Source of the DNA: Macrostomum hystrix
Lineage: Eukaryota > Animalia > Platyhelminthes
DNA length: 64,000 nucleotides
Direction of reading: 5' to 3'
Assembly: GCA_950097015.1 (NCBI GenBank)
Contig: CATNEN010000001.1
Location: 18,042,001-18,106,000 of the forward strand
Position numbers and translations under genes: made by a program. Within the stretch, counting starts at the first letter, position 1. The number at the start of each line of letters is the position of its first letter. Below are positions 31,205-58,958 of this stretch, piece by piece. Under the pieces are notes generated by a model. That model was given only the letters and a program-made list of their open reading frames with translations. It was not told the DNA's origin and did not search any database.

Positions 31205-31420
31205 TTGCGACTTACCTCCCCTGAATGTGACTTACTTCCCTCTGAATGCGACTTACTTCCCTCTGATTGCGACTTACTTACCTTGGAATGCGACTTACTT
31301 CCCTCTGATTGCGACTTACTTCCCTCTGAATGCGACTTACTTCCCTCTGAATGCGACTTACTTCCCTCTGAATGCGACTTACTTCCCTCTGAATGCAACT
31401 TACTTCCCTTGGAATGCAAC
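31205..31420. repeat. 21-bp minisatellite (gcgacttacttccctctgaat)
   Basis: Tandem units. Confidence 0.9.
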
Positions 31421-31735
31421 TAAGTTGCCTCTGATTGCAGATTTTGTCATGTTTTTGCTTCTTTCCCCATTTGCTTTCCTTTCTTTCTTCTTTCCTTTCT
31501 CTGCTTTCCTCCTTTTCCTGCCTTCTTTTCTTTTTTTCTGCTCGTTTTTTTTCTGTCCGATTTTTTTCTCGGGTGGCCATTTTTGCGACTTACCTTGCTC
31601 GGCCGCTCGTCACCCGGCCGGATCGGCCGGGTGTTGCGCATGTATGTGTGCACCGTTGTGTGCCTGTCACCCATAGTTAGGAAGGTGGCATGTGTACGCC
31701 GGAATGAAATTCGGGCAGGGCTACCTATGTATGCC

Positions 31736-32619: not shown

Positions 32620-35600
32620 TGATGTGGAGTGTGCTACGGGAATCGAGTGGGAATGTGTGCCAGCAGAATTTTTCAAATTTTAGGCAGTTAATAATCACGA
32701 CCCACCTAGCAGCTGGCCGGGTTTGGGGCGGCGGTGAATTAAGTAGCCGTCAAATCCCCTCTCCCTGGATCTGTTCTAGCCCCCTGTAGGAATGACTGAT
32801 CGCGGGCCATAACTTTACTGTATGAGCTAGTTTAGGTCATAATTCCCCTCCAAACCGCGATCAGATATTGGGAATCACTCGGGCATTATGAGTGATCATT
32901 TATTCTTCATGTCCCCACTTCTTTACAGTATTGGAGCCCAGCTCGACTTTATAACCTCCTCTCTTAGATACATGTAAATGTCACTGTAGGCAGGTCGGCG
33001 CCTGCGCTTCCCATTGTCCCGGCGGAGTAACAATTATTGGCCGACTGCCGGCGGCTGCTCGTAAAGGAGCATCTGTCGTTTTTTGCCGCCGGTTCATTGG
33101 GTAATCGGGGTGGCCATCGCCGCTTCGATTCCTCGATGACAGGCTGGCGCGAATGTGGGTTATTTTGATGAATGTCGAGGTTGGCGTGCTGCAGGACTAT
33201 TTAAGAAAGCGCGCTGCGCTGCTCCCCCCAGGACCTCGGCCCAGAGACTTCTCTCCAGAGACTCGGCCCAGGACCTCTCCCACTTAGGGCTTAGACCCTC
33301 GAGCTTTGAGTTCATTTTAGCGCTCACAGGCTCATTGCCTGCCTATAAGCCTTCTTATAGCCTTCTAGCCTTCCCCTCCTCTGCCTTTGCTGATTTTGCC
33401 CTACCCTCCCTCGAGAACGACAGGACTGCAGCACGCGGCCGATCGGCGTTAAGATAAGTAACCCGCGCAGCGGTTTTCCATTGTTACTCCTAAGGGACTT
33501 ATCCTACTAGTTAAGCGGCATAATAGTGGGAAAGGGCATCGGGATTTTTAGCCTAATAAACTTTCATCATTAGCCAGTTAATTTCACATTAGGCCAATTT
33601 TAACTAAATTTTAAATCCTTTCACACTTTGTTCGCCTCCATGTTTATTTTCACTACTAGACAGCCCTCAGCTATGAGTGGCTAATCTCCTAGGGGGGTGG
33701 GCTCTGGTGATGCCGAGCTGAAAGTGGCGCAGGAAGGCAACTGTAAGCGCGCACAAAGGTGATAAGAAGCTAGGGATTTGCAAGCAGATGCGGAGGTAGT
33801 ATGTGCATTTCTTCCCATGGGGGTTGGGGGAATCCTTGGCCGGCTTTCCTTCTCCCTCTTGGGCGGGCTCAAAGTGTACGTGTCGAACTCCCTTTCCAAT
33901 GGAGTTTTCCCTTATCCCCCTCTCGCAACTGCGGCCAAGGGAGCGAGAGTGATGACTTAATAATCGTTCGCTTGCATAATCACTCAGCCAGTGTTCTGCT
34001 TAATCTCTCCAGCCTCTGGTTTCCTCAACTCACACAGATTCGGTTTGTTGTTTACTTAATGTGTAGGCTGCTGTCAAATGTATAGGATGTGTCTGATGTC
34101 TTATGAGTAGGATTTTGGCTATGGATCCTCATTCAAGTTCTTAGTACCACCTTTCTAGACCCCTGTAGCGCGAATCCCCTTTTGAGGCGTTGATGTGGAG
34201 TGTGCTGCGGGAATCGAGTGGGAGTGTGAGCCAGCATAATTTTTCAAATTTTTTAAGTGTCTAATAATTGCGACCCACATAGCAGCTGGCCGCAAACACG
34301 ATCATTAATCTTAGGGCCGGGTTTTGGGCGGCGGTGAATTAAGTAGCCGTCGACTCCCTTCTCCCTGGATCTGTCTAGACCCCCGTAGGAATGACTGATC
34401 GCGGCCATAACTTTTATTGTACGAGTAGTTTAGGTCATAATTCTCCTCCAAACCGCGATCAGATATTGGGGATCACTCGGGCGTTATGAGTGATCATTAA
34501 TTCTTCATGTCCCCTCTTCTTTACAGTATTCGAGCTCAGCTCGACTTTATGACCTCCCTCCTTTAGATACATGTAAATGTCACTGTAGGCAGGTCGGCGC
34601 CTGCGCTTCCCATTGTCCCGGCGGAGTAACAATCGCTGGCTGACTGCCGACGGCTGTTCGCGCAGGACATCTGTCGTTTCCCGCCGCCGGTTCGTTGGGC
34701 AATTGGGGCGGCAATCGCCGCTTCAATTCCTCGATGACAGGCTGGCGCGAATGTGGGTTATTTTGATGGATGTCGGGGTTGGCGTGCTGCAAGACTATTT
34801 AAGCAAGCGCGCTGCGCTGCTCCCTCTAGGACCTCTTTTCTCCCACCGGCTCTTCCCCTTCTCCCTGCCGGTTTACCTTTGCCGGGCCGGAATCCCACCG
34901 GACCCAGGACTTATCCCCCAGACCCATTTAGGGCTTAGACCCTAGAGCCTAGAGCTCCACGGCTAGCGCAGGCCCATTGCCTGTCCCCATTCCCCCTGAG
35001 CGCGAGCCACCTCTTTAGGTGCGCCGTTGAATCGAGCCTTGAGCTCCAAGCGTGTTGGCCCCCTTGCCGACTCGCAGCATTTTCCCTTCCCGGTCTTTGC
35101 TGTCTTACCCCGCCCTCTTCCCCGAGAACAACGGGATTGCAGCACGCGGCCGAAGCGACCCCAGATAAGTAATCCGCGCAGCGGTTTGCAATTATTGCTC
35201 CTAAGGGGCTTTCTATTAGTTAGGCGGCATTTAGTGGGGGGGAGCTAGGAATTGCTCAGCCTAATAAACTATCTAATTTATAGCCATCATTTAACTTATT
35301 GGGCTTACTTTTATAACAACTTAATTCCTTTTGCTATGCCTCCTTTTCACGTTTATTTTATCGTTAGACAGCCCTCTGTCATGAGTGGCTAATCGCCTAG
35401 GGGGCGGGCTCTGGCACAGCCGAGCTGAAAGCTGCGGCAGGAAGGCAATTGTGAGCGCGCATAAGAGTAATGAGGAGCTAGGGATTTGCAGGTAAAAATG
35501 CGGAGTGTAAGCATGTGCATCTCTTTCCTGAGGGTTGGGGGAATTCTTAGCCGGTTTTCCTTTTTCCTCTTGGGAGGGTTCAACGGTGTGCGTGTCGAAC

Positions 35601-37130
35601 TCCTTTGCCAATGAAGTTTTCCCCTATCCCCCTCTCGCGACTGCGGCTACGGGAGCGAGAGTGATGATCTAAGAATCTTTCGCTTGCGTAATCACTCAGC
35701 CAGTGTTCTGCTTAATCTCTCCTGCCTCTGATTTCCTCATCTCACACAGGTTCGGATTTTTTAGTTATTTCATGTGTAGGCTGCAGTCTAATGTAAAGAA
35801 TGTGCCTGATGTTTCATGAGTAGGATTCCGGCTATGGATTTTCATTCGAGTTCTTAGTACCACCTCTCTAGACCCCTGTGGCGCAAATTCAGGAATCCCC
35901 TTTTGAGGCGTGTCTCGATCCATTCTGGGGCTCTCACCCCAGCCTAAAACGGAAGTTGCAGAATGCCCTATTTTTCGGCTTGTCTAGATCTGCGTGATAA
36001 ACTAGGAGCTGTGTACTCCGGGAACCCAAGTTCCAAAATGTCTGCGGTGGCAACGTAGGCGCATTGGGTGGTGGCGCTACCTGAGATCATTTTCCGCTTT
36101 GCCAATAGCCTTTCCGCATTTCTGTGACAAGAGCCTGGGCCGTTTCGACCACCGCTACCAAGGTTAGGAGTCAGTTACTTACACGCTACTGACGGCAGTA
36201 GACTAGTTAGCCCTGCCCTGTCCGATTCCGGGCAGTCCGACCCTCTTCTTAGACTTTTAGCCGGTTTCGAGCACTGCTTGGGGTAGGCACGGCAGTCATG
36301 CCTGTGGCCTATGGGACGAGTGGGACTGGCCAGCCTGAGGCCGATAGGACCACTCCCTGCATCCGCTGAACCTCCCTTCATCTCATCTCTCTTTCCGCGA
36401 AATCTCGCGTGTAGCTAAGCGGTCATTAAGTCGACTCTGTCGCCCGCCCTGAATCCAATTTCATGAGTGCAGTTCAGCGCTTGCAACGCCCACCCACTTC
36501 AGCGTGTCTCGATCCATTCTGGGGCTCTCACCCCAGTCTAAAACGGAAGTTGCAGAATGCCCTATTTTTCGGCTTGTCTAGATTTGCGTGATAAACTAGG
36601 AGCTGTGTACTCCGGGGACCCAAGTTCCCAAATGCCTGCGGTGGCAACGTAGGCGCATTGGGTGGTGGCGCTACCCTAGATTATATATCCGCTTTGCCGA
36701 TAGCCTTTCCGCAGTTCTGTGACAAGAGCCTAGGCCGATTCAACCACCGCTACCAAGGTTAGGAGTCAGTTGCGCACGCACTGTCTAGCCCTGTCCTGTC
36801 CGATTCCGGATAGTCCGAAGCCTCTCTCTTTAGACTTTTAGCCGGTTTCGAGCATTGCTTGGGGTAGGCACGGCAGTCATGCCTGTGGCCTATGGGACGA
36901 GTGGGACTGGCTAGCCTGAGGCCGATAGGACCACTCCCTGCATCTACTGAACCTCCTCATCTCTCCCTTCATCTCCTCTCTCTCACTCCGCGACATCTCG
37001 CGAGTTGCTAGGCGGATATTAAATCGACTATGTCGCCCGCCTTTAGAAATGAACTCTCATGAGGGCAGGTCAGCGGTTGCAAAACACCCAAACCATGTCA
37101 GGATGGTCTTCTCCATGACTAACTATTTCA
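32620..37130 (+). repeat. 5' LTR of element A (~2.2 kb net), split by a solo LTR
   Basis: Starts TGATGTGGAG, ends ..ctatttCA; pieces 32620-34190 and 36506-37130 join at gaggcgt|gtctcgatcc. Confidence 0.85.
34191..36501 (+). mobile_element. Solo LTR (2311 bp) of the same family inserted in A's LTR
   Basis: TG..CA ends, 4-bp TSD GCGT at 34187-34190 and 36502-36505. Confidence 0.88.
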
Positions 37131-37132
37131 AA

Positions 37133-37153
37133 TGGTGGCACCGGGGTGGGATC
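37133..37153 (+). promoter_or_regulatory. Primer binding site of A (tRNA-Leu-like)
   Basis: TGGTGGCACCGGGGTGGGATC, 2 nt after the LTR. Confidence 0.75.
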
Positions 37154-38470
37154 TAGAGAGGGCGCGAAACGAACTTGAAAATTTCAATTGTTAGTTTAGC
37201 GCTGCAGATTTCTGTGGTAGCTAGCCGAAAGGGCTCCTTCTAGATTTCATTTTCCGTATGCCGAAATCTTATCTCGAGAGAGTGAATCTCAGTTCGGGTG
37301 ACCGTCATTAAATTTTCGAACAGTCGCAATTTGATTTCAATTTAATTTAGCTTTTTGCTAGAACTTCCAAAATGCTGATTAGTGACTTTCTACTATGAGT
37401 AGGCTGTGTGAGCCGATTTCATGTTAGAGTGTCTTCGGGTTATGTGGTTACCGTAGGCTGCCTTGTACTGCCTGATGGGTTCCTAGTATAAACGCCGACT
37501 ATTGGTGTCGCGGGGGGCCTGCTTCCGAGGACTCGCGTTTGAAAGTGCCGCATAACTTTGACCAAGTCCGACTTAGGCAAGGACCTGTTAGGGGGCTGGG
37601 ATTCGGCGACCATACCGCTTCCCAGAAAGCAGCCGTTCCAGTCTAACGACACCCGCGCTAGCGCCCCGAAGCTGTACATAGTCTCTTGTTCGACCCTAAG
37701 GACGGGCTAGAATTTGGTCGGCATGGCTCTCTTAGGTTACAGGGAGTCTGGGTTGGGCCAGTCTTAACAAAGGACCGGGCAATGTCCCTACGGCCTTCTA
37801 ACCGAGCGAGGGGGCCCCCGGCAATGCAGCCGGGAATCGATGACTCGCCGAGCACCGGGGATTGACCCTTCCTAGTGAGCCCTATTGGGTCTGTACTTTC
37901 CGAGGTGGGGTGGGTAGGCCAAAGGCCTTTGACAGAGCACCCCATAGAGTCTACCCAAAGAGGTGACATGAGGGTGATATGGTAATTCTGCTATAAGAAG
38001 TAAATCCGGCTAGTCTTAGGTCGGCTGTTGACCCTGGGCAGGCTGTGGTGGTGCTGACTCCGCCGTACCTATAGTGTAACAGTCCGCTATAGGGTTGCAG
38101 AATGAGTGCTAAGTTAAAATCTAGACTTCTATGTCCCAAACTTTAGTGCGCGCAGGCAGTTGTTGGTAGCCAAGGCTGGAAGCAAAAGCTAGCCAGGGCC
38201 CCAGACCCTTTCTCTCCCCTCATTCTTTTCCTTTGTTTGCTTATCGGCCACTGCATCGCAGTGATTATTTATTAGGCCGGGAATTTCTCTGTGATCTTTT
38301 CTAGGTTGGGTGACGTAAGTCAGCCGGGCCTTTCTTCTTTGTTTAATTCCCACGGCCCCTGGTCGTGCTCTGAGCACTGCTCCACTCCCACCCCTCTCTC
38401 CCTCATTGTTGCAGTAGCGACAAACCCCCCATTTTTCAAAGCAAAATCCTCATACCTCTTTTGGCCGAAA

Positions 38471-41400
38471 ATGTCCGACCAGGAGGGTGAGGTCGTCGAG
38501 GAAATCGGCGCCCCCCGCCCAACAAGAGGCAGGGCCGTCTCCGCAGAGAGGTGCTGGGAAAGGCGGCCTCTGCCCGCGCCCGCAGCCACTGACACGCCTA
38601 GAACGGATCCTTGGAAGGTCCATCAGCACCTCCTTGCGGTACTGCAGTCAGTAAGGTCCGACTTACAGTCGCTGGGCAGTTCAGTCCCCTCCCCAGCGTT
38701 GAAACACTCAGTCGCCACCCAGACAGAGGGCGAACGCTCGCCGGTGGCTAAACCCTTCGACCGGGACAGATCCGACATCGCCTCCTGGATGCTCCGGCTG
38801 GAGGCAAAGTTCCAGTTCGAGGAGGTCAGCGATGACCGGGCGAGGAGCGTGATCTGTTACGGTCTGCTTCCGGAGGAAATGCAGTTGGAGTGCCTCCTGG
38901 CCATCGACTTCGATGCGCCTTTTCAACACCTTTTCAACAGTAGGCTGCTGGATGGCTGCCTAGACTCCAGATTGCCGTGCACCAAGAGGCGGACGGTGGA
39001 AAGCCAGCAGCCGCGGCCAGGCGAAACTCCTGGGGTGTCCCTAGTCCGGATGAGAAAACTTGTCGAATGGGCCTACGCCGATCAGCCGGAAGCCTGGCGG
39101 CAGGCGGAGCTCAAAAAGCTCTAACTGCAGAATGGGCAATTCGACCGGAGCTTCGCCTTCGAGGCTTTCTTGGCAAAGGGCTGGACGGCGGAGGACACGG
39201 TGTTCGAGCAGAGGCGAGCTGAGGAGGCTAACCGCGTCGCGCATGAGATCGAGCGCGAGCGACGGAGCTCGGCCGTGGAGGATACCTCGGGATACCAGAG
39301 CGGCGCACCCCCGGTGGACAGTTCGCCCAAGGCCGTGGTCAGAACGGCAACCGCCGAGCGCGGCCCCGTAGAGTTTCCCAACTGCGTGGACAAGGTGGAG
39401 GTGGGGTCTCAGCTGCAAGCCGAACAGAGGGCGCAACTAGAGGATCTGCTGCGCGCTAATGCCGACCTTTTTGCCGATCAGGAGGAGGGCTTGACGGTCA
39501 CCGACGTGGTGCGGCATGAGATCACGCTGACCGACCCGCGGCCCGTGAAGTCGGCGCGGCGGAGGATCCCTCAGGCCTACCTTGAGGAGGTACAGCAGAT
39601 GGCCAGGGACTGGCTGGAGACCGGTAAGGTCAGTCGCTCATCCAGCCCGTACTGTTCGCCATTGGTGCTGGTGAAAAAGAAAGATGGTTCGCTACGTGTG
39701 TGCATCGATTACCGTGAGCTCAACGAGCGCAGCGTGTCCGAAGTCACGCCGTTGCCGCGCATTGATGAGCTGCTGGCATCCTTACACGGTTCATCGTACT
39801 TTACCACCTTAGATCTCCGCAGTGGGTACCATCAGGTGCCCATGAAGGAGGCGTGCAAGCAGTGTACTGCGTTCGCTGTCCCCGGCGTAGGGCTGTCACA
39901 GTGGAACGTAATGCCGTTCAGGTTGAAGGGCGCGCCGAGCACCTTCTCACGACTGATGAATGTGGTGCTGGCGGACGTACCGCAGCATGAGGCCATGGCG
40001 TATATCGATGACGTCATTGTACATTCCGCCACCTTTGAGCAGCACCTGGTCCGGCTCCAAAAGACCTTTGTTCGGCTTCGGGCTGCCAACCTGAAAATGA
40101 AGCCGTCCAAATGTTTCCTCGCGCAACCGGAAATATCTTTCCTTGGTCACACCGTGTCGGGCAGCGGCCTCGCGACTGACCCGCACAAGACGTGTGCGCT
40201 GTCTACATGGCCGCGGCCGCGCACTGCCACTAATGTCAGGTCATTTTTAGGCGCGGTAGGCTACTATCAAGAATTCGTGCCAGATTACAGCCGCCTCTCA
40301 GCCCCGTTGTGCGAGCTCACGAAGAAGGGCCTCACCGAACGTGACGCCCCTCTGGAACGATAACCATGAAGCCGCCTTCGAGGAGCTGAAGACACGAATG
40401 GTAGAAGCCCCCGTGCTGGCTCACCCCAGTTTTGTTGTAGGCGCAGGAAGATTCATCCTCGATTGCGATGCTAGCCTGGACTCCTTGGGCGCCGTGCTGA
40501 GTCAAGAGCAGCCTGACGGCACGGAAAGAGTCCTGGCTTACGACAGCAAGGTTTTGACCGCCGCGCAACGCAACTACTGCGTCACCAAACTGGAGATGAT
40601 GAGCCTGGTCTATTTCACCAGAAAGTACCGGTACTACATGTTGGGCCGCCGGTTCTTGGTCCGAACCGACCATAGCTCCCTCCAGTGGTTCAGGAGTTTC
40701 AAGGAGCCTACCGGTATGTACGCGCGATGGGTGCAACACTTGTCGCTGTACGAGTTCGACTTGGAGTACCGGAAGGGCAGCCTCCACACCAACGCCGATG
40801 CGCTGAGCCGTCGACCCAGGCAGAGGCACGGCGATTGCCCCACTTGTCGGCCGCTGGAACCCGACAGCGAAGAGGATAGCGACGACGATGGGGTGGTGGT
40901 CAACGTGGTTGCAGCGAAAGCGAGGAGGGACCCGCCTCTGCCGCGCGAGGAGCTGTTGGCCCAGCAGGCTGCTGAACCGTTGATTCATTGTGTGGTGCAG
41001 GCCAAGACCCGCGGCCTGGCTGCTCCTGACCCGGCCACAGTCCCGGAGTTGTCCGCCTCCGATAAGGTCGCGCTGAAAAAGATCGTGCCCTTCTGGGACC
41101 TCCTAAGGGTAGAGGAGCAATTGTTAAAGATCCAGTTGCACGCTCCTCCCCTACCGCCACGGTGGGTGCTTCCGGCGAGCAGGCCTTCCGGGCGTGCCAC
41201 AACGGAGACCTGGCCGGGCACTTCGGACGCCAGAAAACCCTCGCGCGCATCGAACAGCGGTTCTGGAGGCCGGGTCTTCGCGCATCGATGGTGAGACTGT
41301 GTGCGCAATGCCATGTGTGCTTGTGCAGTAAGAAGGGCCGCAGAACTCGAGCCCCGCCGCAGGCATGGGAGAAGAGTCCGAAGTTCTCTATAATCCACCT

Positions 41401-42329
41401 GGACTTCGTCGGCCCCCTGGGTCGGGGAGGTCAGAGCGTCCTCACCATCGTGGACAGCTACTCAGGTTGGATCGAGGCTTTCCCGGTGGTCAGCCAGACG
41501 GCTCTGGCAGTCACTCGGATCCTGGTCAGGGAATTCATCCCCAGGTTCGGTGTGCCCGACTGGATCCATAGTGATCAAGGGGCGCAGTTTGAGTCGAGAC
41601 ATTTTCGCGAGTTCTGCCAGAAGCTGGGCATCCGCAAATCTCGCACCACGCCCTACCACCCCCAAGGCAACGGGATGGCGGAGAGTCAGCACCGCACCCT
41701 GAAGACCTTGCTGACCGCGGCAGTGGGTCGCAACCCGGAGGGGTGGAAGTCTCATCTGGCTACCTGCCATGCGGCCATGAGGTCCGCCCAGCACACTCGG
41801 ACCGGGTTCTCGCCGTTCTTCCTAGTGCACGGGCAGGAAGCCAGGCTGCCTGTGGATGTGGCTCTTGCCGCGCCGGCCGAGGTACCCAGGCCGCACCAGT
41901 ACGTGGATCAGCTCCTGCAGACCATGGAGAAGGCGCAGGTGCAGCTGCAGGAGCAGTTTAATCAGAAGCTCCAGGCGCAGGCTCGAATGGAGGACAGACG
42001 AAGGAAGACGGAGCTTGAGGTGGGAGCAGTAGTGTACCTGGCCCGCCACCATATCGAGGGCTGGGAGATCCCGAAATTTCACCAGGCCTACTCGGGACCA
42101 TGGAGGGTGGTCGCTAAGCCGGGTGTCGATCTACGACATCGCGCCAGTAGTTCCACAGCCCGGTCGACAGCAGACCTACCGGGTGCACCGTGACAATCTG
42201 CGGGCCGTCCCTAAGGAGGCTGGGGAGGTCGAGCCAGTCCATGTGGCTCAGGAAGACCGGACTAGGCAAGAGCGATGTCGACCGGGCCGTCCGCCGGTAA
42301 GACCGAGGCCAGCATCACCTCCGCGGTGA
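38471..42329 (+). pseudogene. Gag-like + RT + RNase H + integrase polyprotein of A (in-frame stop 39122; frameshifts ~40335, ~41175, ~42125)
   Basis: WMLRLEAKF gag-like, LRVCIDYRELN, LDLRSGYHQV, YIDD, CDAS..TDH..NADALSR, HHCC, LDFVGP/SDQG/GMAE, YSGPW; no protease motif. Confidence 0.9.
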
Positions 42330-43409
42330 ATGGTGCAGTTGGAGGTCGGCCCGGACAGCGAGTGGAGTGACGACTCCTCCGACTCAGGAGACTATTGGGC
42401 CGACGCAGAAGAGCCCCCGCAACCAATAGTCGACGAGGGGCCGCGAGTGCTCCGTCCTCGGGAAGGTATCCGACCCCCCGAGCGCTGGGGCTATGCCAGG
42501 AGGATCTGCCTCTGTGGTTCCGAGGGCGGTTCCGAGTCCTGGGGTACCTCGAGCGATGATGACCCGGACTGAGGGCAGGTAGAGCCCGGCTGCGCGCGCC
42601 CAGGTGCACCCACGCGATCGTGTTAGGGGACAAAGTCCTCCTCCGAATCATTTCTCTTAGCGAAGCTACATTTTTCCTTAACTGTTCGTTGTTTTTCTCT
42701 TTTTCATCTAAAGCCATCTTGGCGCCAAAGTCCTCTTAAAAATTATTATAATTTAGCCAAAATCACAAAAACATACATAGTGGGGTGAAACTCCCCTGGT
42801 AGAGTTTTCGTAGGGGATGTCCTCTAATTGCAGCAAACTAGGATGTGCACCTTCTCTTTCTCAACATTCAACCTTATTTGCACTGCTTCATGAATGGCAC
42901 TTGTTATCTCTCGTTCCTTGCATGGGTTTTCGGGAGTTTAGCTTATGTCGGCTTCTATCTTAGGAGGGATACCAACCCGCCAAAGTGAGCGGGGTGGTAT
43001 GCATATGGGAATTCAATGTTTGATTAGAAGTTGGCGGTAGCAAATCAAGAGGCCGACAGGGTCACCTAGCTGAAATCTGTGTGAGACGATCTGTTATTTC
43101 CACGGACCGCAGATTTCGAACAATGTGGGCTCTTTATCCTCTGGGAATATAAAAAAAGAAAACCATATTTCGGGGAAGTAGTATTTGCTTGCTTTGTTCA
43201 TGGTGGGCACCGGAGTCGGGGTTTCGCAATAGATCGTACCTGGTTGGGAGCCTAGGCCTACTGCAAATGTAGATTAGCAGTCAGAATTGATTTTGCTATT
43301 TTAGTCGCCAGGCGGAAAAATTTGAGCGGCATAAATTAGAAAATAATTTCAATAAAAAGACAGCAAGGAGTTAATCAGTATTCAGACAGATGGTGTTCAT
43401 GGCCCTTGA

Positions 43410-46400
43410 TCAGTGGAGATCAATCTGATCAGAGAACTTGATCAGAGCCGCACCGGTGAGGGTGGCCATGCTGGCCACCACCGCCAGGTGATGTGGAGTG
43501 TGCTGCGGGAATCGAGTGGGAATGTGAGCCAGCATAATTTTTTCAAATTTTTAAGTAACTAATAATTGCGACCCACATAGCAGCTGGCCACAAAACAAGA
43601 TCATTAATCTTAGGGCCGGGTTTGAGGCGGCGGTGAATCAAGTAGCTGTCGAATCCTCTCTCTCCGGAGTTGTCTAGACTCCCCGTAGGAATGACTGATC
43701 GCGGCCATAATGTTACTGTATGAACTAGTTTAGGTCATAATTCCCCTCCAAACCGCGATCAGATATAGGGGCTCACTCACGCGTTATGAGTGATCGTAAA
43801 ATTCTTCATGTCCCCGCTTCTTTACAGTATTCGAGCCCAGCTCGACTTTATGACCTCCTTCCTTTAGATACATGTAAATACCACTGTAGGCAGGTCGGCG
43901 CCTGCGCTTCCATTGTCCCGGCGGAGTAACAATCGCTGGCTGACTGCCGACGGCTGTTCGCGCAGAACATCTGTCGTTTCCCGCCGCCGGTTCATTGGGC
44001 AATTGGGGCGGCAATCGCCGCTTCAATTCCTCGATGACAGGCTGGCGCGAATGTGGGTTGCTTTGATGGATGTCGGGGTTGGCGTGCTGCAAAGCCTATT
44101 TAAGCAAGCGCGCGGCGCTGCTCCCTCTAGGACCTCTTTTCTCCCACCGGCTCTTCCCCTTCTCCCCTGCCGGACTTACTTTTGCCGGGCCGGACTCCCA
44201 CCGGACCCAGGACTTATCCCCCAGACCCATTTAGGGCATAGACCCTAGAGCTCATAGCTCCACAGCTAGCGCAGGCCCATTGCCTGTCCCCATTCCCCCT
44301 GAGCGCGAGCCACCTCTTTAGGTGAGCTGCTAAATTGAGCTTTGAGCTCCAAGCGTGTTGGCCCCCTTGCCGACTCGCAGCATCTTTCCCTTCCCGGCTT
44401 TTGCTATCTTACCCCATCCTCTTCCCCGCGAACAACGGGATTGCAGCACGCGGCCGAAGCGACTCCAGATAAGTAATCCGCGCAGCGGTTTGTAATTATT
44501 GCTCCTAAGGGGCTTTCTATTAGTTAGGCGGCATTTTAGTGGGAGGGAAGCTAGGGATTGTTTCGCCTAATAAACTATCCAATCTAAGCACTTTTAACTT
44601 ATCGGGCTTAACTTTATAACAATTTAATTTCTTTCATTATGTCTCCTTTTCACCTTTATTTTAACCTTAGACAGCCCTCTACCATGAGTGGCTAATCTAT
44701 TAGGGGAATGGGCTCTGGCACAGCCGAGCTGAAAGCTGCGGCAGGAAGGCAATTGTAAGCGCGTATGAGAGCAATAGGGAGCTAGGGATTTGCAAGTAAA
44801 ATGCGGAGTGTAGCGCGTGTTGTCTTTCTGCCCAGGGGTGGGGAATTCCCTGGCGGGTTTTCCTCGTTTTCTGGCGGAACTGGGAATGCGTGTCAAGCTC
44901 CCCTGCCAATTGAGCTTCCCTTCCGTTCCCCCTCTCGCTTCCACCGCCAGGGAAGTGGGGGGTGATGATCTTTTAATCTTACGCTCGCATAATCACTCAG
45001 CCAGTGTTCAGCTTAACCTCTCCTGCCTCTGTTTTCCTCAACTCACACAGACCGGATTGCTAGTTACCTAATGTGTAGGCTGCAGTCTAATGTACCGAAT
45101 GTGTCTGATGTTTCATGAGTAGGACTCTGGCTATGGATTTCTCTTTCGGGTTCGGAGTACCACCTTTCTAGACCACTGTAGCGCAAATTCAGGAATCCCC
45201 TGGTGAGGCGTGTCTCGATCCATTCTGGGGTCTTCACCCTAGTCTAAAACGGAAGTTACAGAAGGCTCTATTTTTTTCGGCTTGTCTAAGATCTGTGTGA
45301 CAAACTAGGAGCCGCGAGCTCCGGGGACCCAAGTTCCCAAATGTCTGCGGTGGCAACGTAGGCGCATTGGGTGGTGGCGCTACCCTAGATCATTTTCCGC
45401 TTTGCCGATAGCCTTTCCGCATTTCTAAGACAAGAGCCTAGGCCGAGTCGACCACTGCTACCAAGTTTAGGAGTCAGTTACGAACATGCTACTGATGACA
45501 GTAGGCTACCTAGCCCTGTCCTATCCGCTTGCGGGTAGTCCGACATCTATTTAGACTTTTAGCCGGTTTCGAGCACTGCTTGGGGTAGGCACGGCAGTCA
45601 TGCCTGTGGCCTATGGGTTGAGTGGGACTGGCCAGCCTGAGGCCGAGAGGACCACTCCCTGCATCCACTGTCTCTCCCTTCATCTCTCCCTTCATCCCTC
45701 TTTCCGCGGCAACTCGCGAACCTTTGCGGTATGACTTCCGACTCTATCGCCATCCCCACACTCCTTTCCTTCACGAGGACAGATCATCGGATTGCAAACC
45801 CGCAGCTATTTCAATGGTGGCATCGAGGTGGGATCTAGAAAGGGCGCGAAACGAACTTGAAATTTCAATTGTTAGCTTAGCGCTGCAGATTTCTGTAGTA
45901 GCTAGCCGAAAGGGCTCCTTCTAGATTTCATTTTCCGTATGCCGAAATCTTATCTCTGGAGACTGGACTTCAGTTCCGAGTAACTGTCAATTAATTTTCT
46001 TTGAACAGTTTCAATTTGATTCGGACTTTAATGTAAGGTTTTGTTAGAGTTTCTAAAAATTCTGATTAGTGACTTTCTACTATGAGTAGGCTGTGTGAGT
46101 GGACTTCATGCTAGAGTGTCTTCGGGTTATGTGGCTACTGCAGGAGTCGGGGACTGTCTGCGGGGTTTTCCTGCGTGATTGTTCTAGGCGAGGGTAATCT
46201 AAACGGAGTAACCGGGCTCTGAGCCACGGACCCCTAAGCCGAAGCGAGGCTCCAGAGGAGAAATACCTGGACTTCCCAGCCTTGTGAATCGCAGAGGCGA
46301 AGCCCCTGGCCACCCCCCAGGAAGGGCCCTCTGAGCGAATCGGGGATTAGCCTTTCCTTGGGCGTCGCGCAAGGCCCGTTTTCATGTTCCTGATTCTGAA

Positions 46401-49400
46401 GGTGCCACATAACTTTGACTAAGTCTAACTTAGGGGCGGAATAGTTAAGGGTCGGGACCCCGAGGGAGTCTAAGGACGCCCGTGCCCGCGCCCTGAAACT
46501 GCCGACCTTGGGGATAGGCTAGAAATCGGTCGGCATGTCCTTTTCTAAGAAGCTCTCTGAAGGGTAGTCTAAACGCAGTAACCGGGCTTTTGCCCTACGG
46601 ACTCCTAAGCCGAAGCGAGGCTCCAGATGTAAAATACCTGGACTTCCCAGCCTTGTAAATCGCAGAGGCGAAGCCCCTGGCCACCCCCCCAGGAAGGGCC
46701 CTCTGAGCGAATCGGGGATTAGCCTTCTTTGAGTAACTTATTGAAGTCGTGTACTTTCCAAGGTAGGGCGATAGGCTGCTGCAGGCGCAAGCTTGCAGTA
46801 GTACTGGCCCCGCCGTACCTATAGTGTAACAGTCCGCTATAGGGTTGCTGAATGAGTGCTAAGTTAAAACCTAGACTCCTATGTCCCAAGTTCGAGTGCG
46901 CGCAAGCAGTTGTCGGAAGCCAAGGCTGGAAGTAGAGCTAGCCAGGGCCCCGGGCCCTTTTTCTCTCCTATCAGTTTTTCATTTATCGCTTTATCGGCCG
47001 CTGCATCGCAGTCTTTGTTCGCTAGGGCCGGGTTTTTCAATTGCTTATTCTCCGCGGCCACTGCCGTGTGCAGCACCCCGCTTAGCCCACTTTTTCTCAT
47101 CCCCAGTGTTGCTTTAGCGACAAACCCCCTCTTAACTCGCAAAATCCTCATTCCCTCTGTGGCCAACATGTCTGACCAGGAGGATGAGGTGGTGGAGGCC
47201 GTTGGCAGTGCCCGTCCACCCAGAGGCCGCGCTGCGGCAGCAGCGCGAGCCGAACCCCCAGCAACTGCGGCAGCCCAGCCGGCAGACCCAGTGGAGCGCT
47301 TAGCCTCCCTGATGGAGCGTTTAGAGCCGCGACGGGCTAGGACCCACCGAGTAAAAATTGCTTTAGAACCGTTCGAGTCGGCGAAGGACTCTTCCCCGCT
47401 GGCTGCGCAGGTTTAATTTGAAGGTCGAGGCCGAGGGTCTTGAGACGGAGGAGGAGAAAATCCTCACCCTCCTGGCTCACTTAGGGGGCGAACCCTTGAC
47501 CCAGGCCATGAGCCTGCCGCGCCGAGTGACCTACCCGCGGTTTGTGCAAGACCTGACCGAGGCCCTCAGCGGCGCCTGCACACCCTATGCCCGGCTCCTT
47601 AGCGGGCGCAACCTTAAGCAGGACAGAGGCGAGTCATACGCCTCGTTCGCTGACCGCCTGCGATCTGTGGCCACCCAGGTCAACCCCAATGGCCGCGGCC
47701 CACCCTTTGAACAAGCCCTCCTGGCCTCCTTCCTAGAAGGTATCACGGCCCCCCCGGAGGTGTTGGCGCCCATGATGCGGATAGAATTCGCCACGGTAGA
47801 GGCGGCTGCCGCTGAGCTGCGCGCCGCCACCCAGGCATTTGAGATGGCCGCTGAGCGCGACCCCCGACGCCGAGTGCGCCAGGTCAGGGCCGGGCTAGCC
47901 GAGGAGCAAGAACCCCCCGGCGAGATTCAAGCCGTCCGCCGTGAGCAGCAGCACTTGGCCCAGGAACTGGCCAAAGTTTCCCAGCAGCTCGCGGAAGTCA
48001 CGCGGCAGCTGCGCGAATCACAGCCAACCCCGGCCCGCCCGCCCCATCCGCACCTGCCCGGGCACCAGTGGTACCCCAGGGTAGCAACGGGGCCGCGGAA
48101 GAAGTACCGTGGGAACTATGCCGCGGGAAACGGGAGTGGGGCCGCCGACTGGAGGCAGCCAGACTATCCGGATGCGCCCCACGCAGCTCGGGCGATCGAG
48201 GCCCCCCCCACTGATGCCTCCCTCATCAAAGTCCGAGTGAATTCACTCGGCCGAGTCCCCGCCCGAGTGCGCACCCGCCCCAACCGCTCTGAGAAGCTTA
48301 GTGAGGTGTGGGTCGCCTTGGAGGTGGACGGGACACCCCTCGACCTGTTGATCGACACTGGATCTATGGTCAATGTGCTCCCGGACTCGCTATCATCCAT
48401 CATCCGACAGTTCCCATTCGAACCCCCTCAATTTTCACTAATTGCGTACAATGGCACACCAATTGTTGCACTCGCGCAGGTCAGGATCAAATTACAGGTT
48501 GGCGCCGAAGCACTGGATACTCTATTCCTTGTGGTCGAGGGCGACTGCTCCCCCCTGCTAGGCGCCTCCTGGTTGGCTCACCATCACGCCATTCTCGATT
48601 TTGACTCGCGAAATCTAATAATCTACAGCCAATCCATCCCTTTCTCGCTCAGGCGGAAGCCTGCCTTTTAGGGCTGAGGAACTCCCCTCCCCTTTCCTTC
48701 CCCCCCTCTCCCCCCCTTGGGGATATTTAGACTGGAGGTTAGTGGAGGAGCCGGGAAGTTTAGAAGGGACGCAGTCAGTTCATTTTAACAAAGATTGTCG
48801 ACATGGCTGGCCTGAGCATCACTGTGGCCTGGTGGCTGGAGACGGTCGCCACCGACTATCGGCGAGAGTTGGCCGGCAGGAGTACCTGGATTATGGTCCG
48901 CCTGTGGCTACTCCCTGCGTTGGGCCGTGCGGCACAGGCCGGAATCGATCTCGCCCTGGCATGCAGGCTAGCCGAAGCCCGGTGGTTGGCGCAGGCATGG
49001 GTCGAGGAACGGGACCCGAGCCCGCCAAGAGGTGAGGACGAGGAGACCCTGCCTTGGAATCTCCGGTGGCCGCATTACTGTCCGCCAGAAGACTGGGGCA
49101 TGGCAGTGCCCGAAGCCCTCATGTCCTGGCTACAGGCTACCCGGATACCTGGCAGGTGGGATCTCGAGCACCAGCTGGTGGGAGAGCTAGTTGGCGAAGC
49201 CGTCTGGAGGCAATCTTCCGGGCTAGCCTCCACGCCATGGAGAAGCTGGGCGGTAGAGGCATCAACCATCGAGGAGACGCCACCAGGCGACAGCACGCTC
49301 GGCCAAATGGTAAGGCAGATGGAAGGGGAAGATGATGGTGAGAGCCTGGTAGGGAGTACTCCCATCAAGAATGGAGGCGAGGAATAGGGGCCCAGGATCC

Positions 49401-52400
49401 GAGTAAGGGCACGATAATGCGCGAAAAGCATCCATGGTAAGCCCTACCCACTGAGTTGTTCCTTCGTTCCCCTCGTCCTTTTTCCCTCTATTAATCATTC
49501 GCACTATGCACCTTTTGCTCTCTTCCTATTGTGCATACCTTCCTTTCTTTCATTTAAAGCCGTCTTGGCACAAAAGTCTTATTCTAAAAACTCTTATAAT
49601 TTTTAGTCAAAAACCCAAAAACATACATAGTGGGGCGAAACTCCCCTGGTAAACTTTTCGCTTGAGATAATTTCTAACTGCAGCAGTCTAGGGCGTGCAC
49701 CCCTCTTTTCTCAAACATTTAATATTACCCGCACCACATTTTAAACAGCACCCTCTATATCGCTTTGTTTCGGGTAGGCCCGGGAGTTGGTTCATCTGGG
49801 GACAGATTTCTATATTAGGAGGGATACCAACCCGCCAAAGTGAGCGGGGTGGTATGATGGGCACTCTAAGTTTGGAGTGGGGTGGGTGATTGAACAAGGA
49901 CTGGCAGGCTTTTAGCTCAGGTTGAGAGGAGTTTTCTTATTGGTTTAGAAGGCAGTGGGCATTTCAATGGTGGCTCCTTTTCTAAGGGAGGTGAGAAGTG
50001 ACTGTGAGGCACCGCGAAAAGGACAGGGTTGTTTACGTAGATGGATCAACTGGATTGCGGGCGCCTAAACAAGCCTTTCTGTTGTGATTTTTCAATTTAG
50101 TTCCATGTTCACCTTACTATTATTGAGGAAGCACATTTTAGTGGTAGATTTGGAATGACGCGTTGTCCTTTAGAATTTTCTAGCATCGTTCTTTTAAAGG
50201 AAGAAGGCCTAGCGAGAGAAATCATGTAAACGGCACATAGCATGTTCGGAATAAGAGTAATTTATTAATAGTAAAGGTAATTAGTAAGTAATTAGTGGTC
50301 TATTTACAATTTATATACAAGCAAGCAAAACATGCATCAAAAAAAAATAAGCAAAGGAAGGGTAGGGGAAATAAAAATTGGGATTATATACAGTGGCTCT
50401 GGGGTCAATGTCTTTGTAAAAAAAACCCCAGAGCCCGTCCTTTTCGGCCTCTCTTTTCCTTCAACGGCGCTGGCGGAGGCAGGCGGCCATCAGGGTCCCT
50501 GCGACGGCCAAGAGGCCGGCCGCAGCGATTGGGCCGATCGGTCCCGATAGTATGCTTTCTCCAATGTCGCGCGCGGCCTGCACAAGGTGGCCGGGCGCCA
50601 CGTCAATATCTGTGGAAGATGGAATGGGTTGTTTTATGAAGAAGTGGGTAGTTAAGCAGCTGCGGCTGGGGGTGAATGCAGGGATTCAGTGATTTCGTTC
50701 GAATAATATTTCACTGGTGGCTAATTCAGGATGAGAGGCAAAGTTGGATTACGGCAACTTACTAATAGCAAATTCCACTCGCACTGGCGGCGGCGGCACG
50801 GGAACTCTGAAATATTGAGGGCAGGAATGGCGGCAATCAATCACGACGGCAGCAAATTCACGTAATCTCTGTGCCAAACACACAATTAAGACTTAAGCCA
50901 ATTTATTTCTAATCTAGGTTTTCACTGGAACTTCTCAACTTATCGGGCGGAGGGATGGGGGCTCAGGTTAAGACCTGTCATATATAATAATCAGGCTGGG
51001 GTGCCGGGAACTGCTGTAATTATCCTAGTTAGTCTAATTATTATTCAATCACTTTAATCGCCCCTCAATAACCGGCCTTGGGAGGCCGAGTAGAAGCAAT
51101 AACTCACCTTTCTTCAACAGGCAGCAGCTGGGCCAGGCCCACGGCATCGACCAGCGGCGCAGATGGCTGGGTGGTTACTTTCATGTCGAGAAATTTAGAA
51201 ATTCCTTGATATTTCGATGGTAGGCAGGTCTAATTGTTAGTCAGATAACAGGCGTAAAAGCTAATGGAGCATCAAGTGGTCATTTTTTTATAATAGTTTG
51301 CTTAGGGGTTTTGGTGGCCGGGGCGCCAGCCAATAGGAAGGCTCGGGAAGGATTGTGGGAAATTCCACGAGTAAGGGGGCCATAGTTGTTTAGTTATTGT
51401 AGTTTAGTGGTAGTAGTTTAGTTATTGGGGCCTTGATCTTTTCGGAGGAGGTATCGCGGCCGGCAGCAGCGAAACTGAGCGGCCTGAGCAGCGGTTTTCT
51501 CCGGCTGCGACCAGCTGCAGCACCGATCGGACCGCGCGCAACGGCTCGGCACCCGGCCCGGCGAGCATTTTCGGGCACGGCCAGCTGTGAACACCGACGC
51601 GCGGCGAATCAGAGGCCACCAAGGCCCGGCAACAGGATCGGCAAGGGCGCAAACGGGCTGAACAACCTGGACCCACCTGGGGAGAGCACGGCCGGACCCC
51701 TCGGACTCAAGGCAAGACGGCCGGGGCCTCCCAGGTTTGCGCAACCGAGACCAAGCCGGGCAGGGAGAACTGGGACGAGCTGCAACCACCTGGAGAAGAA
51801 GGCGAGCCGGGACGAGGCACCCCCTGGGCAACGAGAACAACATCGCCGCGACCGGAATGCGCACCCACCTCCCCTCAGGACTCTATCCCTTAGTCGCTAG
51901 GGGCGCCGACCGTTTGTACTCTCGCACCAATCTATTTATAGCCGTACGTACGTACGCATTAGGATTTCTTCTCTAGCGGAATTCTTCCTAGGGTTCTCTA
52001 CGGTATGTTGTAGGTAATTTTTTTTATCCCCTCGATTCTCGAGACACCCCGCTACTACTGTCAGTAGGCACGTAAGTGTCTTACGTGAAAGTGAGCGAAG
52101 GAGGAGTGATGTGGAGTGTGCTGCGGGAATCGAGTGGGAATGTGAGCCAGCATAATTTTTTCAAATTTTTAAGTAACTAATAATTGCGACCCACATAGCA
52201 GCTGGCCACAAAACAAGATCATTAATCTTAGGGCCGGGTTTGAGGCGGCGGTGAATCAAGTAGCTGTCGAATCCTCTCTCTCCGGAGTTGTCTAGACTCC
52301 CCGTAGGAATGACTGATCGCGGCCATAATGTTACTGTATGAACTAGTTTAGGTCATAATTCCCCTCCAAACCGCGATCAGATATAGGGGCTCACTCACGC

Positions 52401-54637
52401 GTTATGAGTGATCGTAAAATTCTTCATGTCCCCGCTTCTTTACAGTATTCGAGCCCAGCTCGACTTTATGACCTCCTTCCTTTAGATACATGTAAATACC
52501 ACTGTAGGCAGGTCGGCGCCTGCGCTTCCATTGTCCCGGCGGAGTAACAATCGCTGGCTGACTGCCGACGGCTGTTCGCGCAGAACATCTGTCGTTTCCC
52601 GCCGCCGGTTCATTGGGCAATTGGGGCGGCAATCGCCGCTTCAATTCCTCGATGACAGGCTGGCGCGAATGTGGGTTGCTTTGATGGATGTCGGGGTTGG
52701 CGTGCTGCAAAGCCTATTTAAGCAAGCGCGCGGCGCTGCTCCCTCTAGGACCTCTTTTCTCCCACCGGCTCTTCCCCTTCTCCCCTGCCGGACTTACTTT
52801 TGCCGGGCCGGACTCCCACCGGACCCAGGACTTATCCCCCAGACCCATTTAGGGCATAGACCCTAGAGCTCATAGCTCCACAGCTAGCGCAGGCCCATTG
52901 CCTGTCCCCATTCCCCCTGAGCGCGAGCCACCTCTTTAGGTGAGCTGCTAAATTGAGCTTTGAGCTCCAAGCGTGTTGGCCCCCTTGCCGACTCGCAGCA
53001 TCTTTCCCTTCCCGGCTTTTGCTATCTTACCCCATCCTCTTCCCCGCGAACAACGGGATTGCAGCACGCGGCCGAAGCGACTCCAGATAAGTAATCCGCG
53101 CAGCGGTTTGTAATTATTGCTCCTAAGGGGCTTTCTATTAGTTAGGCGGCATTTTAGTGGGAGGGAAGCTAGGGATTGTTTCGCCTAATAAACTATCCAA
53201 TCTAAGCACTTTTAACTTATCGGGCTTAACTTTATAACAATTTAATTTCTTTCATTATGTCTCCTTTTCACCTTTATTTTAACCTTAGACAGCCCTCTAC
53301 CATGAGTGGCTAATCTATTAGGGGAATGGGCTCTGGCACAGCCGAGCTGAAAGCTGCGGCAGGAAGGCAATTGTAAGCGCGTATGAGAGCAATAGGGAGC
53401 TAGGGATTTGCAAGTAAAATGCGGAGTGTAGCGCGTGTTGTCTTTCTGCCCAGGGGTGGGGAATTCCCTGGCGGGTTTTCCTCGTTTTCTGGCGGAACTG
53501 GGAATGCGTGTCAAGCTCCCCTGCCAATTGAGCTTCCCTTCCGTTCCCCCTCTCGCTTCCACCGCCAGGGAAGTGGGGGGTGATGATCTTTTAATCTTAC
53601 GCTCGCATAATCACTCAGCCAGTGTTCAGCTTAACCTCTCCTGCCTCTGTTTTCCTCAACTCACACAGACCGGATTGCTAGTTACCTAATGTGTAGGCTG
53701 CAGTCTAATGTACCGAATGTGTCTGATGTTTCATGAGTAGGACTCTGGCTATGGATTTCTCTTTCGGGTTCGGAGTACCACCTTTCTAGACCACTGTAGC
53801 GCAAATTCAGGAATCCCCTGGTGAGGCGTGTCTCGATCCATTCTGGGGTCTTCACCCTAGTCTAAAACGGAAGTTACAGAAGGCTCTATTTTTTTCGGCT
53901 TGTCTAAGATCTGTGTGACAAACTAGGAGCCGCGAGCTCCGGGGACCCAAGTTCCCAAATGTCTGCGGTGGCAACGTAGGCGCATTGGGTGGTGGCGCTA
54001 CCCTAGATCATTTTCCGCTTTGCCGATAGCCTTTCCGCATTTCTAAGACAAGAGCCTAGGCCGAGTCGACCACTGCTACCAAGTTTAGGAGTCAGTTACG
54101 AACATGCTACTGATGACAGTAGGCTACCTAGCCCTGTCCTATCCGCTTGCGGGTAGTCCGACATCTATTTAGACTTTTAGCCGGTTTCGAGCACTGCTTG
54201 GGGTAGGCACGGCAGTCATGCCTGTGGCCTATGGGTTGAGTGGGACTGGCCAGCCTGAGGCCGAGAGGACCACTCCCTGCATCCACTGTCTCTCCCTTCA
54301 TCTCTCCCTTCATCCCTCTTTCCGCGGCAACTCGCGAACCTTTGCGGTATGACTTCCGACTCTATCGCCATCCCCACACTCCTTTCCTTCACGAGGACAG
54401 ATCATCGGATTGCAAACCCGCAGCTATTTCACAGGCCAATAGGGCCCTTCAGAGTGTTGACCAGAACTGTCCCAGCGTCCTCCGGTCCAAGAGGCAGTTC
54501 GATGTCTGCGGACAGGGGGAGCAGGTTTTGTTCTTATTAGCGGGGATTAATAGATGTTGTACCTGTGGTAGCGTGGCACACACAAATGGTGAAAATAACC
54601 AAGACAAGAACTAGATTCAGAGAGGAAAGTATCCGGC
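43410..54637 (-). CDS. Antisense spliced small membrane protein gene of element A, interrupted by element B (exons ~54637..54563; 54505..54432 + 43484..43410)
   Basis: Removing B and one CAGG restores ..LNLVLVLVIFTICVCHATT|DIELPLGPEDAGTVLVNTLKGPIGLAVVASMATLTGAALIKFSDQIDLH*; 57-nt GT-AG intron with CTAAT. Start codon unresolved. Confidence 0.6.
43489..45813 (+). repeat. 5' LTR of B
   Basis: TG..CA; TATTTAA ~44097, AATAAA ~44569. Confidence 0.95.
45815..45835 (+). promoter_or_regulatory. Primer binding site of B (tRNA-Leu-like)
   Basis: TGGTGGCATCGAGGTGGGATC. Confidence 0.75.
47169..48671 (+). CDS. Gag + aspartic protease of B (one +1 frameshift near 47390)
   Basis: MSDQEDEVVE start like A; WLRRF, QDRGESYASFADRL gag motifs; coiled coil; LLIDTGS..PLLGASWL; stop directly after the protease. 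Confidence 0.85.
48803..49387 (+). CDS. Orphan Trp-rich ORF (194 aa) in place of pol in element B
   Basis: Intact ATG ORF after gag-PR; no recognised motif. Confidence 0.55.
   Translation: MAGLSITVAWWLETVATDYRRELAGRSTWIMVRLWLLPALGRAAQAGIDLALACRLAEARWLAQAWVEERDPSPPRGEDEETLPWNLRWPHYCPPEDWGMAVPEALMSWLQATRIPGRWDLEHQLVGELVGEAVWRQSSGLASTPWRSWAVEASTIEETPPGDSTLGQMVRQMEGEDDGESLVGSTPIKNGGEE
50461..51147 (-). CDS. Antisense spliced small membrane protein gene of element B (last exon 50609..50461; candidate first exon 51147..51108)
   Basis: Pyrimidine-rich acceptor ttccacag; phase-1 exon xIDVAPGHLVQAARDIGESILSGPIGPIAAAGLLAVAGTLMAACLRQRR*; GTGAGT donor after MPWAWPSCCLLKK. Confidence 0.6.
51931..51940 (-). 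promoter_or_regulatory. Candidate antisense TATA box
   Basis: TATAAATAGA on - strand; similar tctacttatag in A at ~54900. Confidence 0.4.
52087..52106 (+). promoter_or_regulatory. Polypurine tract of B
   Basis: gaaagtgagcgaaggaggag directly before the 3' LTR. Confidence 0.8.
52107..54431 (+). repeat. 3' LTR of B
   Basis: Same length as the 5' LTR; spurious ORFs identical at constant offset 8618. Confidence 0.95.
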
Positions 54638-58214: not shown

Positions 58215-58958
58215 TGCTGCAATGTGGCGGTGCGGTTCATGCTATACGCTAAAGACAACGCGACCCGTGCCAACATATAAGTTATTTTAGCATTTGACTA
58301 TAATGCTCTTAGATGAATCCAGTCTGATATGATGTGTGCATTGGCCCGATTCCCTGGCAGTGAATGTCTACTAATATATATAAGTAGTAATAAGTAGTAA
58401 TTTACAACTTAACTTGCTTTGATCGTTAACTTTTCTGGTAGTGCCACGCGTCCATGGCAACCATCATGAATGACTTCTATATTCTCCAGACTGCAGACTA
58501 AATCTGAGGCGAATTTTTATCTTAAAATATTCATAACAAATACTACAAGCTGGCCGATCTTCCTGACCACAGCTTTGAATATAGCTGTATTAACCTAGTA
58601 GTATTAGCATACCGTAACAATGTCTCATAATCATAACTCCCTTAAAATTCAATTAAAATCTAACTCATGGGTCTGACACTCACATAAACTAAATTCTCAG
58701 TTAACAAATTCGTAGCAATAAAACAGAGTCAATTCTCTCAGTTAACTCTCTTACTTCTTCTCACTTTCACTTTCTCGTCATTTAACCATCCTGGTCTCAG
58801 CGGATTTTTTGTCACTTAGTCGCCGTGCGACTTTTAAGTTGGTTCATTATATTTGTTCATGACCGCCTGACGAGCACTTCCCCTTGTACGCATTCACGCC
58901 TGTCAATCGTAATGTCGCGTCGTTATTGCTGACGCTCGGCCCCGGGCGCCGGCGCGTG

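Follow-up and report, generated by a model that had tools for sequence, protein, structure and literature searches.

We analysed a stretch of 64,000 nucleotides (nt) from the platyhelminth Macrostomum hystrix (GenBank assembly GCA_950097015.1, contig CATNEN010000001.1, positions 18,042,001 to 18,106,000 of the forward strand; hereafter the window, numbered from its first letter). It contains two retrotransposons bounded by long terminal repeats (LTRs), elements A and B, B being inserted in A. A first-pass annotation had proposed that they form a split Ty3/gypsy system, in which A carries the enzymes and B the structural protein and protease. The two have different domain content and common cis-acting sequences, and each layout recurs in diverged copies.

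Layout of the locus

Four pieces of one 2.3-kb LTR family lie within the locus. Their arrangement was derived by blastn and flank comparison from the target-site duplications (TSDs), and because these flank both element B and a solo LTR we read it as nested. A tandem LTR-A-LTR-B-LTR arrangement was considered and is ruled out by the duplications CAGG and GCGT. The interior of A runs from its primer-binding site at 37133 to 43488, where element B sits. B as a whole occupies 43489-54431 (10,943 nt, + strand) and its two LTRs are identical across 2325 nt, with a 95% upper bound on divergence of about 0.13%; it is a very young insertion inside the 3' region of A. The parts outside the coding regions are:

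32620-34190, + strand: left part of the 5' LTR of element A, starting with TG; identity to the B LTR by blastn 83.8% (653 nt) and 75.1% (852 nt)
34191-36501, + strand: solo LTR within the 5' LTR of A, TG...CA, 4-bp TSD GCGT; 87.7% to the B LTR, and flanks
36502-37130, + strand: right part of the 5' LTR of element A, ending in CA; 84.7% to the B LTR over 524 nt
37133-38470, + strand: primer-binding site of A, then a leader of 1338 nt that has three blocks in common with B (blastn)
42191-43488, + strand: first part of the 3' region of A, including one block common to B; other contigs join 43004 to 43334
43489-45813, + strand: element B 5' LTR, 2325 nt; TSD CAGG at 43485-43488
45815-47167, + strand: B primer-binding site and 1353-nt leader (blastn)
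52090-54431, + strand: B polypurine tract, then 3' LTR (52107-54431), identical to the B 5' LTR; TSD CAGG at 54432-54435
54432-55040, + strand: likely remainder of the A 3' region beyond the B insertion, from the TSD and a purine tract near 55,010-55,040

No LTR match that could represent the 3' LTR of A was found by blastn downstream of B within the window. Two independent insertions of one LTR family (34191-36501 and 43489-54431) thus lie inside element A, which may reflect a target preference for its own family. The B leader contains a 166-nt direct duplication (46191-46354 versus 46561-46726, 92%).

Sequences common to A and B

The kinship of the two elements was borne out at every point that the first-pass annotation had named. 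Identity to the B LTR is 75-85% for the pieces of the A 5' LTR and 87.7% for the solo LTR. Both elements carry the same primer-binding site, TGGTGGCA.CG.GGTGGGAT, with tRNA-Leu as the putative primer. Two leader blocks are held in common, 37133-37457 with 45815-46144 (86.7%) and 38048-38287 with 46798-47038 (83.1%); a third pairs 38395-38530 with 47095-47227 (73.5%), and the leader lengths agree (1338 nt in A, 1353 nt in B). Towards the 3' end, block 42694-43022 matches 49540-49874 at 73.7%. The Gag regions begin with a similar N-terminal peptide, 20 of 42 residues being identical (48%), and beyond the first 25-40 residues no similarity was detected between them (best E 1.2). Since the Gag regions are dissimilar past the N-terminus despite a 74-88% likeness of LTRs and leaders, neither A nor B is a plain deletion derivative of the other.

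The TG...CA ends and 4-bp TSDs of B and the solo LTR, the primer-binding site of both elements and the polypurine tract ahead of the B 3' LTR are those of Ty3/gypsy elements (Metaviridae). As had been claimed, the coding content is complementary: A lacks a protease (PR), B lacks reverse transcriptase (RT), RNase H (RH) and integrase (IN), and neither holds the gene set of an autonomous Ty3/gypsy element.

Element A encodes RT, RNase H and integrase and no detectable protease

An open reading frame (ORF) starts at the ATG at 38471, is interrupted by a single stop at 39122-39124 and continues into RT, RNase H and integrase, with no protease family recognized by Pfam. The coding features are:

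38471-39124, + strand: Gag-like ORF, 217 codons then stop; B-like N-terminal peptide, weakly capsid-like, no zinc knuckle
39125-39376, + strand: linker, two predicted helices and coil, no protease, at the position where relatives carry protease plus spacer
39377-40360, + strand: RT, YIDD at 40001, frameshift near 40,350; Pfam RVT_1 E 1.6e-31, Ty3 RT 4ol8 E 3e-55
40260-41291, + strand: RNase H frame, frameshift near 41,175; Pfam RT_RNaseH E 3e-30
41066-42190, + strand: integrase with zinc-binding domain, D-D-E core, a GPW motif at 42095 and a frameshifted C-terminus; Pfam matches rve (E 8e-18) and Integrase_H2C2 (E 5e-15)

The best solved-structure match to the A RT is the Ty3 enzyme (4ol8, E 3e-55), and the order RT-RH-IN and the GPW motif likewise fit Ty3/gypsy. 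An RT tree puts A on a long branch and does not assign it to a clade within gypsy. A search for homologs of the A Gag-RT region returned 2014 matches; among the matches listed all were distant (32-49% identity) and to RT, with none from the A/B family. No relative was found among viral contigs, and metagenome contigs gave five distant loci at 39-50% identity.

In 39 relatives the catalytic D[ST]G lies 128-389 amino acids (aa) upstream of the RT SP motif. No D[ST]G motif occurs in any frame of A 38471-39700. A profile built from the proteases of 37 relatives and run unfiltered on all six frames of 32600-55100 matches only the B protease (48312-48623, E 3e-11). As a control, the profile was applied to the 30 relatives in which 250 aa or more precede RT; 27 gave a match, among them 12 of the 15 that had not gone into the profile and some without D[ST]G. 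It gave no match in A, from which the spacer that follows the protease of animal-type relatives is also missing. The 102 residues after the stop are modelled as two helices and coil without strands (single-sequence model, predicted local distance difference test (pLDDT) 64). A cryptic protease fold in 39125-39420, which had been put forward as grounds for dropping the split-system proposal, was thus not found by motif, profile or structure prediction.

One relative, P0013, had seemed to be a second protease-less Gag-RT protein; its gene model resumes in the post-protease spacer and we read it as a gene-model skip. Two further relatives, P0079 and P0037, have no protease match. The label Gag-like for the first ORF of A has its basis mainly in position, the N-terminus common with B and a weak profile match. 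No slippery heptamer was found in A 38471-39500 and no zinc knuckle in the Gag-like ORF.

Element B encodes Gag and protease

The first-pass annotation had described a different Gag, a protease ending at its own stop (48669-48671) and a following non-pol ORF, and this order stands. In this copy Gag is interrupted by a frameshift near 47,400, which has no counterpart in the contigs that span the site.

47168-48311, + strand: Gag, capsid-like (Gag profile, hhalign), with predicted coiled coil and basic tail, no zinc knuckle; G GGA AAC at 48125-48131
48312-48671, + strand: aspartic protease, DTG at 48354-48362, terminal stop; profile E 3e-11, ASPRV1 chain 27jq E 0.006
48803-49387, + strand: ORF3, a Trp-rich frame of 194 aa that matches no Pfam family and is retained in diverged B subfamilies
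50460-51184, - strand: predicted three-exon antisense mini-gene with a hydrophobic terminal segment, from splice-like sites and hydropathy

A Gag profile scores B Gag at 8.5 bits, a value reached by none of 300 shuffles, and hhalign gives E 0.0097. In Pfam the protease reaches E 2e-4, weaker than the family cut-off. The Gag frame contains a slippery heptamer, G GGA AAC, at 48125, beyond which the -1 frame stays open; the sequence after the heptamer gave no stimulatory hairpin of unusual stability (z 0.3-1.0). No homolog of B Gag-protease was detected at E 1e-3 among 7997 candidates of 238-760 aa.

The predicted antisense mini-gene has donors at 51107 and 50762 and an acceptor at 50610, and lies minus-strand downstream of a GC-rich block at 51400-51900. 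The B insertion also splits a similar short antisense ORF of A (43410-43488 plus 54432-54506, - strand), which like that of B has GPIG and a hydrophobic segment. The antisense mini-ORFs of A and B resemble each other weakly: among 5000 shuffles, 202 and 2100 scored as high.

Both layouts recur in diverged copies

Parts of the locus are present in nine sequencing runs from three studies, of which run X1 may derive from the very sample that was assembled. Contigs of four runs were compared over 38200-43480, and those of three runs (X1, X2 and X3) over 47330-49450. Both arrangements are found again in diverged copies whose differences favour third codon positions, the A junction in two copies and the B arrangement in four contigs from three runs. 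This strengthens the observation beyond the first reading, since either layout is represented by a family rather than by one copy.

An independent short-read contig (X1 record 1) is identical to A throughout 38471-40671, which rules out a long-read error at the protease-less junction. A second copy of A is represented by X1 record 2, 83.2, 80.8 and 84.8% identical in three pieces. The distance from the end of the Gag-like region to the start of RT is 361 nt in this copy and 337 nt in A, which leaves no space for a protease. A one-off deletion, which the first-pass annotation had allowed for, is thereby largely refuted, as a diverged copy bridges the same short junction. In RT (39469-39682) third codon positions account for 16 of the 23 listed difference rows (p 4e-4), and in the Gag-like region for 7 of the 15 counted. 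In this tally row 38861 was counted, rows 38454 and 43041 fell outside the coding regions and duplicates of the 38842 type were set apart. An A-like Gag variant is present in X1, X2 and X3, its link to the junction unseen. In X3 the depth of the A-type Gag contig (10.7) is close to that of the RT, RH and IN contigs (9.8-11.8), a weak hint, with the junction itself unseen, that the main RT family in this run has an A-type Gag. A third, non-coding type, with the Gag start joined to the 3' region (38576 to 42456), occurs in X1 and X3, and X3 holds a further short-type joint (38493 to 42752).

The protease-then-stop order of B was likewise upheld, in three runs and two subfamilies. X3 record 16 (95%) passes from Gag through protease to ORF3 without interruption. 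X3 record 18, from a diverged subfamily (79-86%), has the same order, with 604 nt from Gag to protease against 620 nt in B, and X1 record 4 and X2 record 11 join protease to ORF3. The depth over the protease in X3 is fully explained by records 16 and 18 (12 + 21.4 = 33.4), and among the contigs listed for X1, X2 and X3 none has a protease running into RT-like sequence. In the protease region (48347-48641) 19 of the 26 listed difference rows are at third codon positions (p 4e-5). Gag and protease without RT or IN, in B and in diverged contigs of three runs, fit the Gag-protease semi-autonomous type; a full-length autonomous partner, by which elements of this type are mobilised, was not seen among the contigs listed.

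Contigs from X2, from X3 and in part from X1 have one base fewer between heptamer and protease, which places the protease in the -1 frame; the 16 bases fewer between Gag and protease in the diverged subfamily do the same. From these spacings, B is most likely organized as gag, -1 frameshift, pro and stop, the in-frame fusion being peculiar to the window copy, and the element probably expresses its protease behind a -1 frameshift. At a few positions the window copy of B disagrees with all X1 contigs that span them, whereas A matches X1 exactly. This B copy may be a polymorphic new insertion, or contain local assembly errors.

Surroundings in the window

Fragments of other mobile elements lie on either side of the locus. 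Helitron fragments occupy 60749-62923 on the minus strand (Helitron_like_N E 1e-45, OTU-like protease E 1e-5), a piggyBac-like DDE_Tnp_1_7 transposase fragment lies at 22405-23079 (E 3e-28), and at 24312-25397 there is a 362-aa ORF for a Tc1/mariner-like DDE_3 transposase (E 1e-13). These neighbours and the nearer RT relatives of A point to a eukaryotic, probably animal, host. Minisatellite arrays with units of 16, 18, 21, 23, 24, 27 and 33 nt are numerous in 1-21000 and at 31197-31469. The 16-nt array is present in both orientations (about 6,500-7,400 and 17,300-17,850) and adjoins a tRNA-Gly(GCC) gene or tRNA-derived repeat head at 6356-6426 (- strand). A 138-nt direct repeat (93%; 57248-57385 and 58821-58958) lies around a 239-aa ORF (57353-58069, - strand) without a convincing family match.

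Interpretation

We give an even chance to a model in which A and B represent two types within a single Ty3/gypsy LTR family and probably move only together, B providing the particle and its protease and A the enzymes. B would yield mostly Gag and a little Gag-protease through a -1 frameshift at G GGA AAC, and A a single fusion of the Gag-like domain with RT-RH-IN. This fusion could join B particles through its Gag-like domain or through A's own RNA, and the B protease would then free RT and IN from it. RNA of either element would be packaged and then primed at the primer-binding site that both possess, and integration would use their common LTR ends. Template switching between co-packaged RNAs might preserve the likeness of LTRs and leaders even as the Gag-like regions diverge, and the short third type would ride on both. 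An obligate mutual dependence of A and B is plausible. Slightly short of an even chance, in our judgement, is the fuller version in which the genome is split into a gag-pro segment and a capsid-tag-RT-RH-IN segment, with no complete element in the host, subfamilies 15-20% apart and a non-coding third passenger, in the manner of a multipartite virus.

Several observations weigh against this two-partner model. B is brand new, yet a working source of Pol for it was not seen. The window copy of A is degraded, as the first-pass annotation had cautioned, with the stop at 39122 and at least three frameshifts (near 40,350, near 41,175 and in the IN C-terminus). X1 record 2 has a 684-nt deletion in RT, so that both copies bridging the junction are dead, and no young A-type copy was seen among the copies and contigs compared. 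The Gag-like region measures 768 nt in A and 827 nt in X1 record 2; as the difference is not a multiple of three, one of the two is frameshifted there. The likeness of this region to a capsid is weak: its score against a Gag profile built on 55 relatives is reached by 11 of 300 shuffles, the hhalign match has E 0.036 and covers 32 columns, HMMER returned no match among 1.84 billion proteins and chance matches only among PDB sequences, and the single-sequence model has a pLDDT of 38. The contig comparisons bring further reservations. X2 record 10 has 291 nt upstream of RT that are not alignable to the A linker at 80%. Summed contig depth in X1, which is not copy number, is 730-890 over RT and 125-200 over the junction, and the sequence upstream of the deeper RT contigs is unseen. 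The listed difference rows favour differences common to several runs, which makes the codon tallies a biased sample. Beyond what was listed, the A region has a further 839 difference rows, together with 83 loose ends and another 176 pieces; the corresponding numbers for the B region are 447, 50 and 191. A protease less than 80% identical to that of B, such as one from a full-length master, would escape the B-region comparison.

Such a master, an autonomous member of the LTR family elsewhere in the genome, is the alternative that we take most seriously, although we would not expect it to prove right. B would then be its Gag-protease partner and A an old protease-less lineage mobilized in trans. 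Both halves have precedents: the wheat gypsy families RLG_Sabrina_SA and RLG_WHAM carry Gag and protease only and are ascribed to the autonomous RLG_Wilma (PMC9744471), and mouse IAP 1-delta-1 offers a parallel for A. The deeper RT and IN contigs of X1 with their unseen upstream sequence, the A-like Gag variant of X1, X2 and X3 and the lack of a young A among the copies seen would also fit a master. We keep it at this level because B moved recently and neither A copy seen could supply enzymes. It accounts less well for a junction that is common to copies about 19% apart there and for RT differences that fall mostly at third positions, which together argue that the A lineage kept its RT under selection, something a pure passenger does not need. 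Moreover, every protease-like contig in X3 is of the B type.

It is improbable that A is independent of B, using an uncleaved polyprotein or borrowing protease and capsid from any gypsy family, with B as a one-way parasite. DIRS elements are not known to carry a protease, which counts for this possibility. Sugar beet data suggest generalist mobilisation (PMC13570524). However, A has neither slippery heptamer nor zinc knuckle and hence no evident route to an excess of Gag alone; its LTR, primer-binding site, leader and N-terminal peptide are common specifically to B; and the B protease is under purifying selection despite the lack of Pol in B, where it may still cut B's own Gag. That the missing protease of A reflects an assembly error or a chance deletion in one copy is very improbable: the degradation of the window A and the few places at which the window B departs from all X1 contigs covering them would be expected, but the identical short-read contig and the diverged second copy with the same junction largely refute it.

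To our knowledge, LTR retrotransposons are thought to require one element with the full gene set, and the known helper systems are one-way. If no complete element exists here, a retroelement genome can become segmented, as in multipartite viruses, and the Gag-to-Pol ratio would be set by two transcripts in place of frameshift control. Direct tests of the entry of Pol into particles in trans would become possible. Annotation tools would miss such families, mistaking one half for a dead gypsy element and the other for a non-autonomous repeat. Even with a master, an old RT-RH-IN lineage lacking the protease alone is a layout not found in the literature searched.

Comparison with known systems

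No report of a mutually dependent pair of gag-pro and RT-IN elements was found, nor a description of an old gypsy RT-RH-IN lineage lacking only the protease, in a literature search from which most subscription journals, Repbase Reports and supplements fell outside. Troyka, like A and B, is an unusual LTR retroelement lineage of aquatic animals. Identity with it was rejected, as it is described with CG...CG termini, a 3-bp TSD, LTRs of 100-400 bp and a protease (PMC12440569), versus TG...CA, a 4-bp TSD and 2.3-kb LTRs here.

The closest likeness to B is that of Sabrina_SA and WHAM, which have its layout, share primer-binding site and LTR termini with a Pol-bearing partner and have been called part of a 'cooperative complex' (PMC9744471). 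Wilma is described there with the full canonical set, however, while the Pol-bearing A has no protease, and the wheat families share almost nothing, whereas A and B are alike over whole LTRs and leader blocks at 74-88%. Structural-gene-only LTR elements that are still mobile are also known as TR-GAG (PMC4350172), as the GAG/PROT families of sugar beet, 28 of which keep only these genes (PMC13570524), and as RLG_Quinta/Cereba (PMC11302176). The accessible parts of these three descriptions demonstrate no mutual pair, and the TR-GAG paper speculates that Gag-only elements could drive Gag-less ones. TR-GAGs are shorter than 4 kb, have a single Gag ORF and were chosen as protease-less, in contrast to the 10.9 kb of B with its protease, likely frameshift and extra ORFs (PMC4350172).

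For A, barley BARE-2 is comparable as an enzyme-bearing element that relies on the structural protein of another, BARE-1; it is a copia element that lacks only Gag and has an autonomous helper, whereas A retains a Gag-like domain and lacks the protease (PMC4350172). The in-frame Gag-Pol fusion of A resembles that of the mouse intracisternal A-particle (IAP) 1-delta-1, which arose by internal loss, is mobile in trans and has a fusion acting in cis. As reviewed in PMC6466679, IAP 1-delta-1 lacks portions of gag and of pol and depends on full-length IAP for both; A, in contrast, has complete RT, RH and IN domains.

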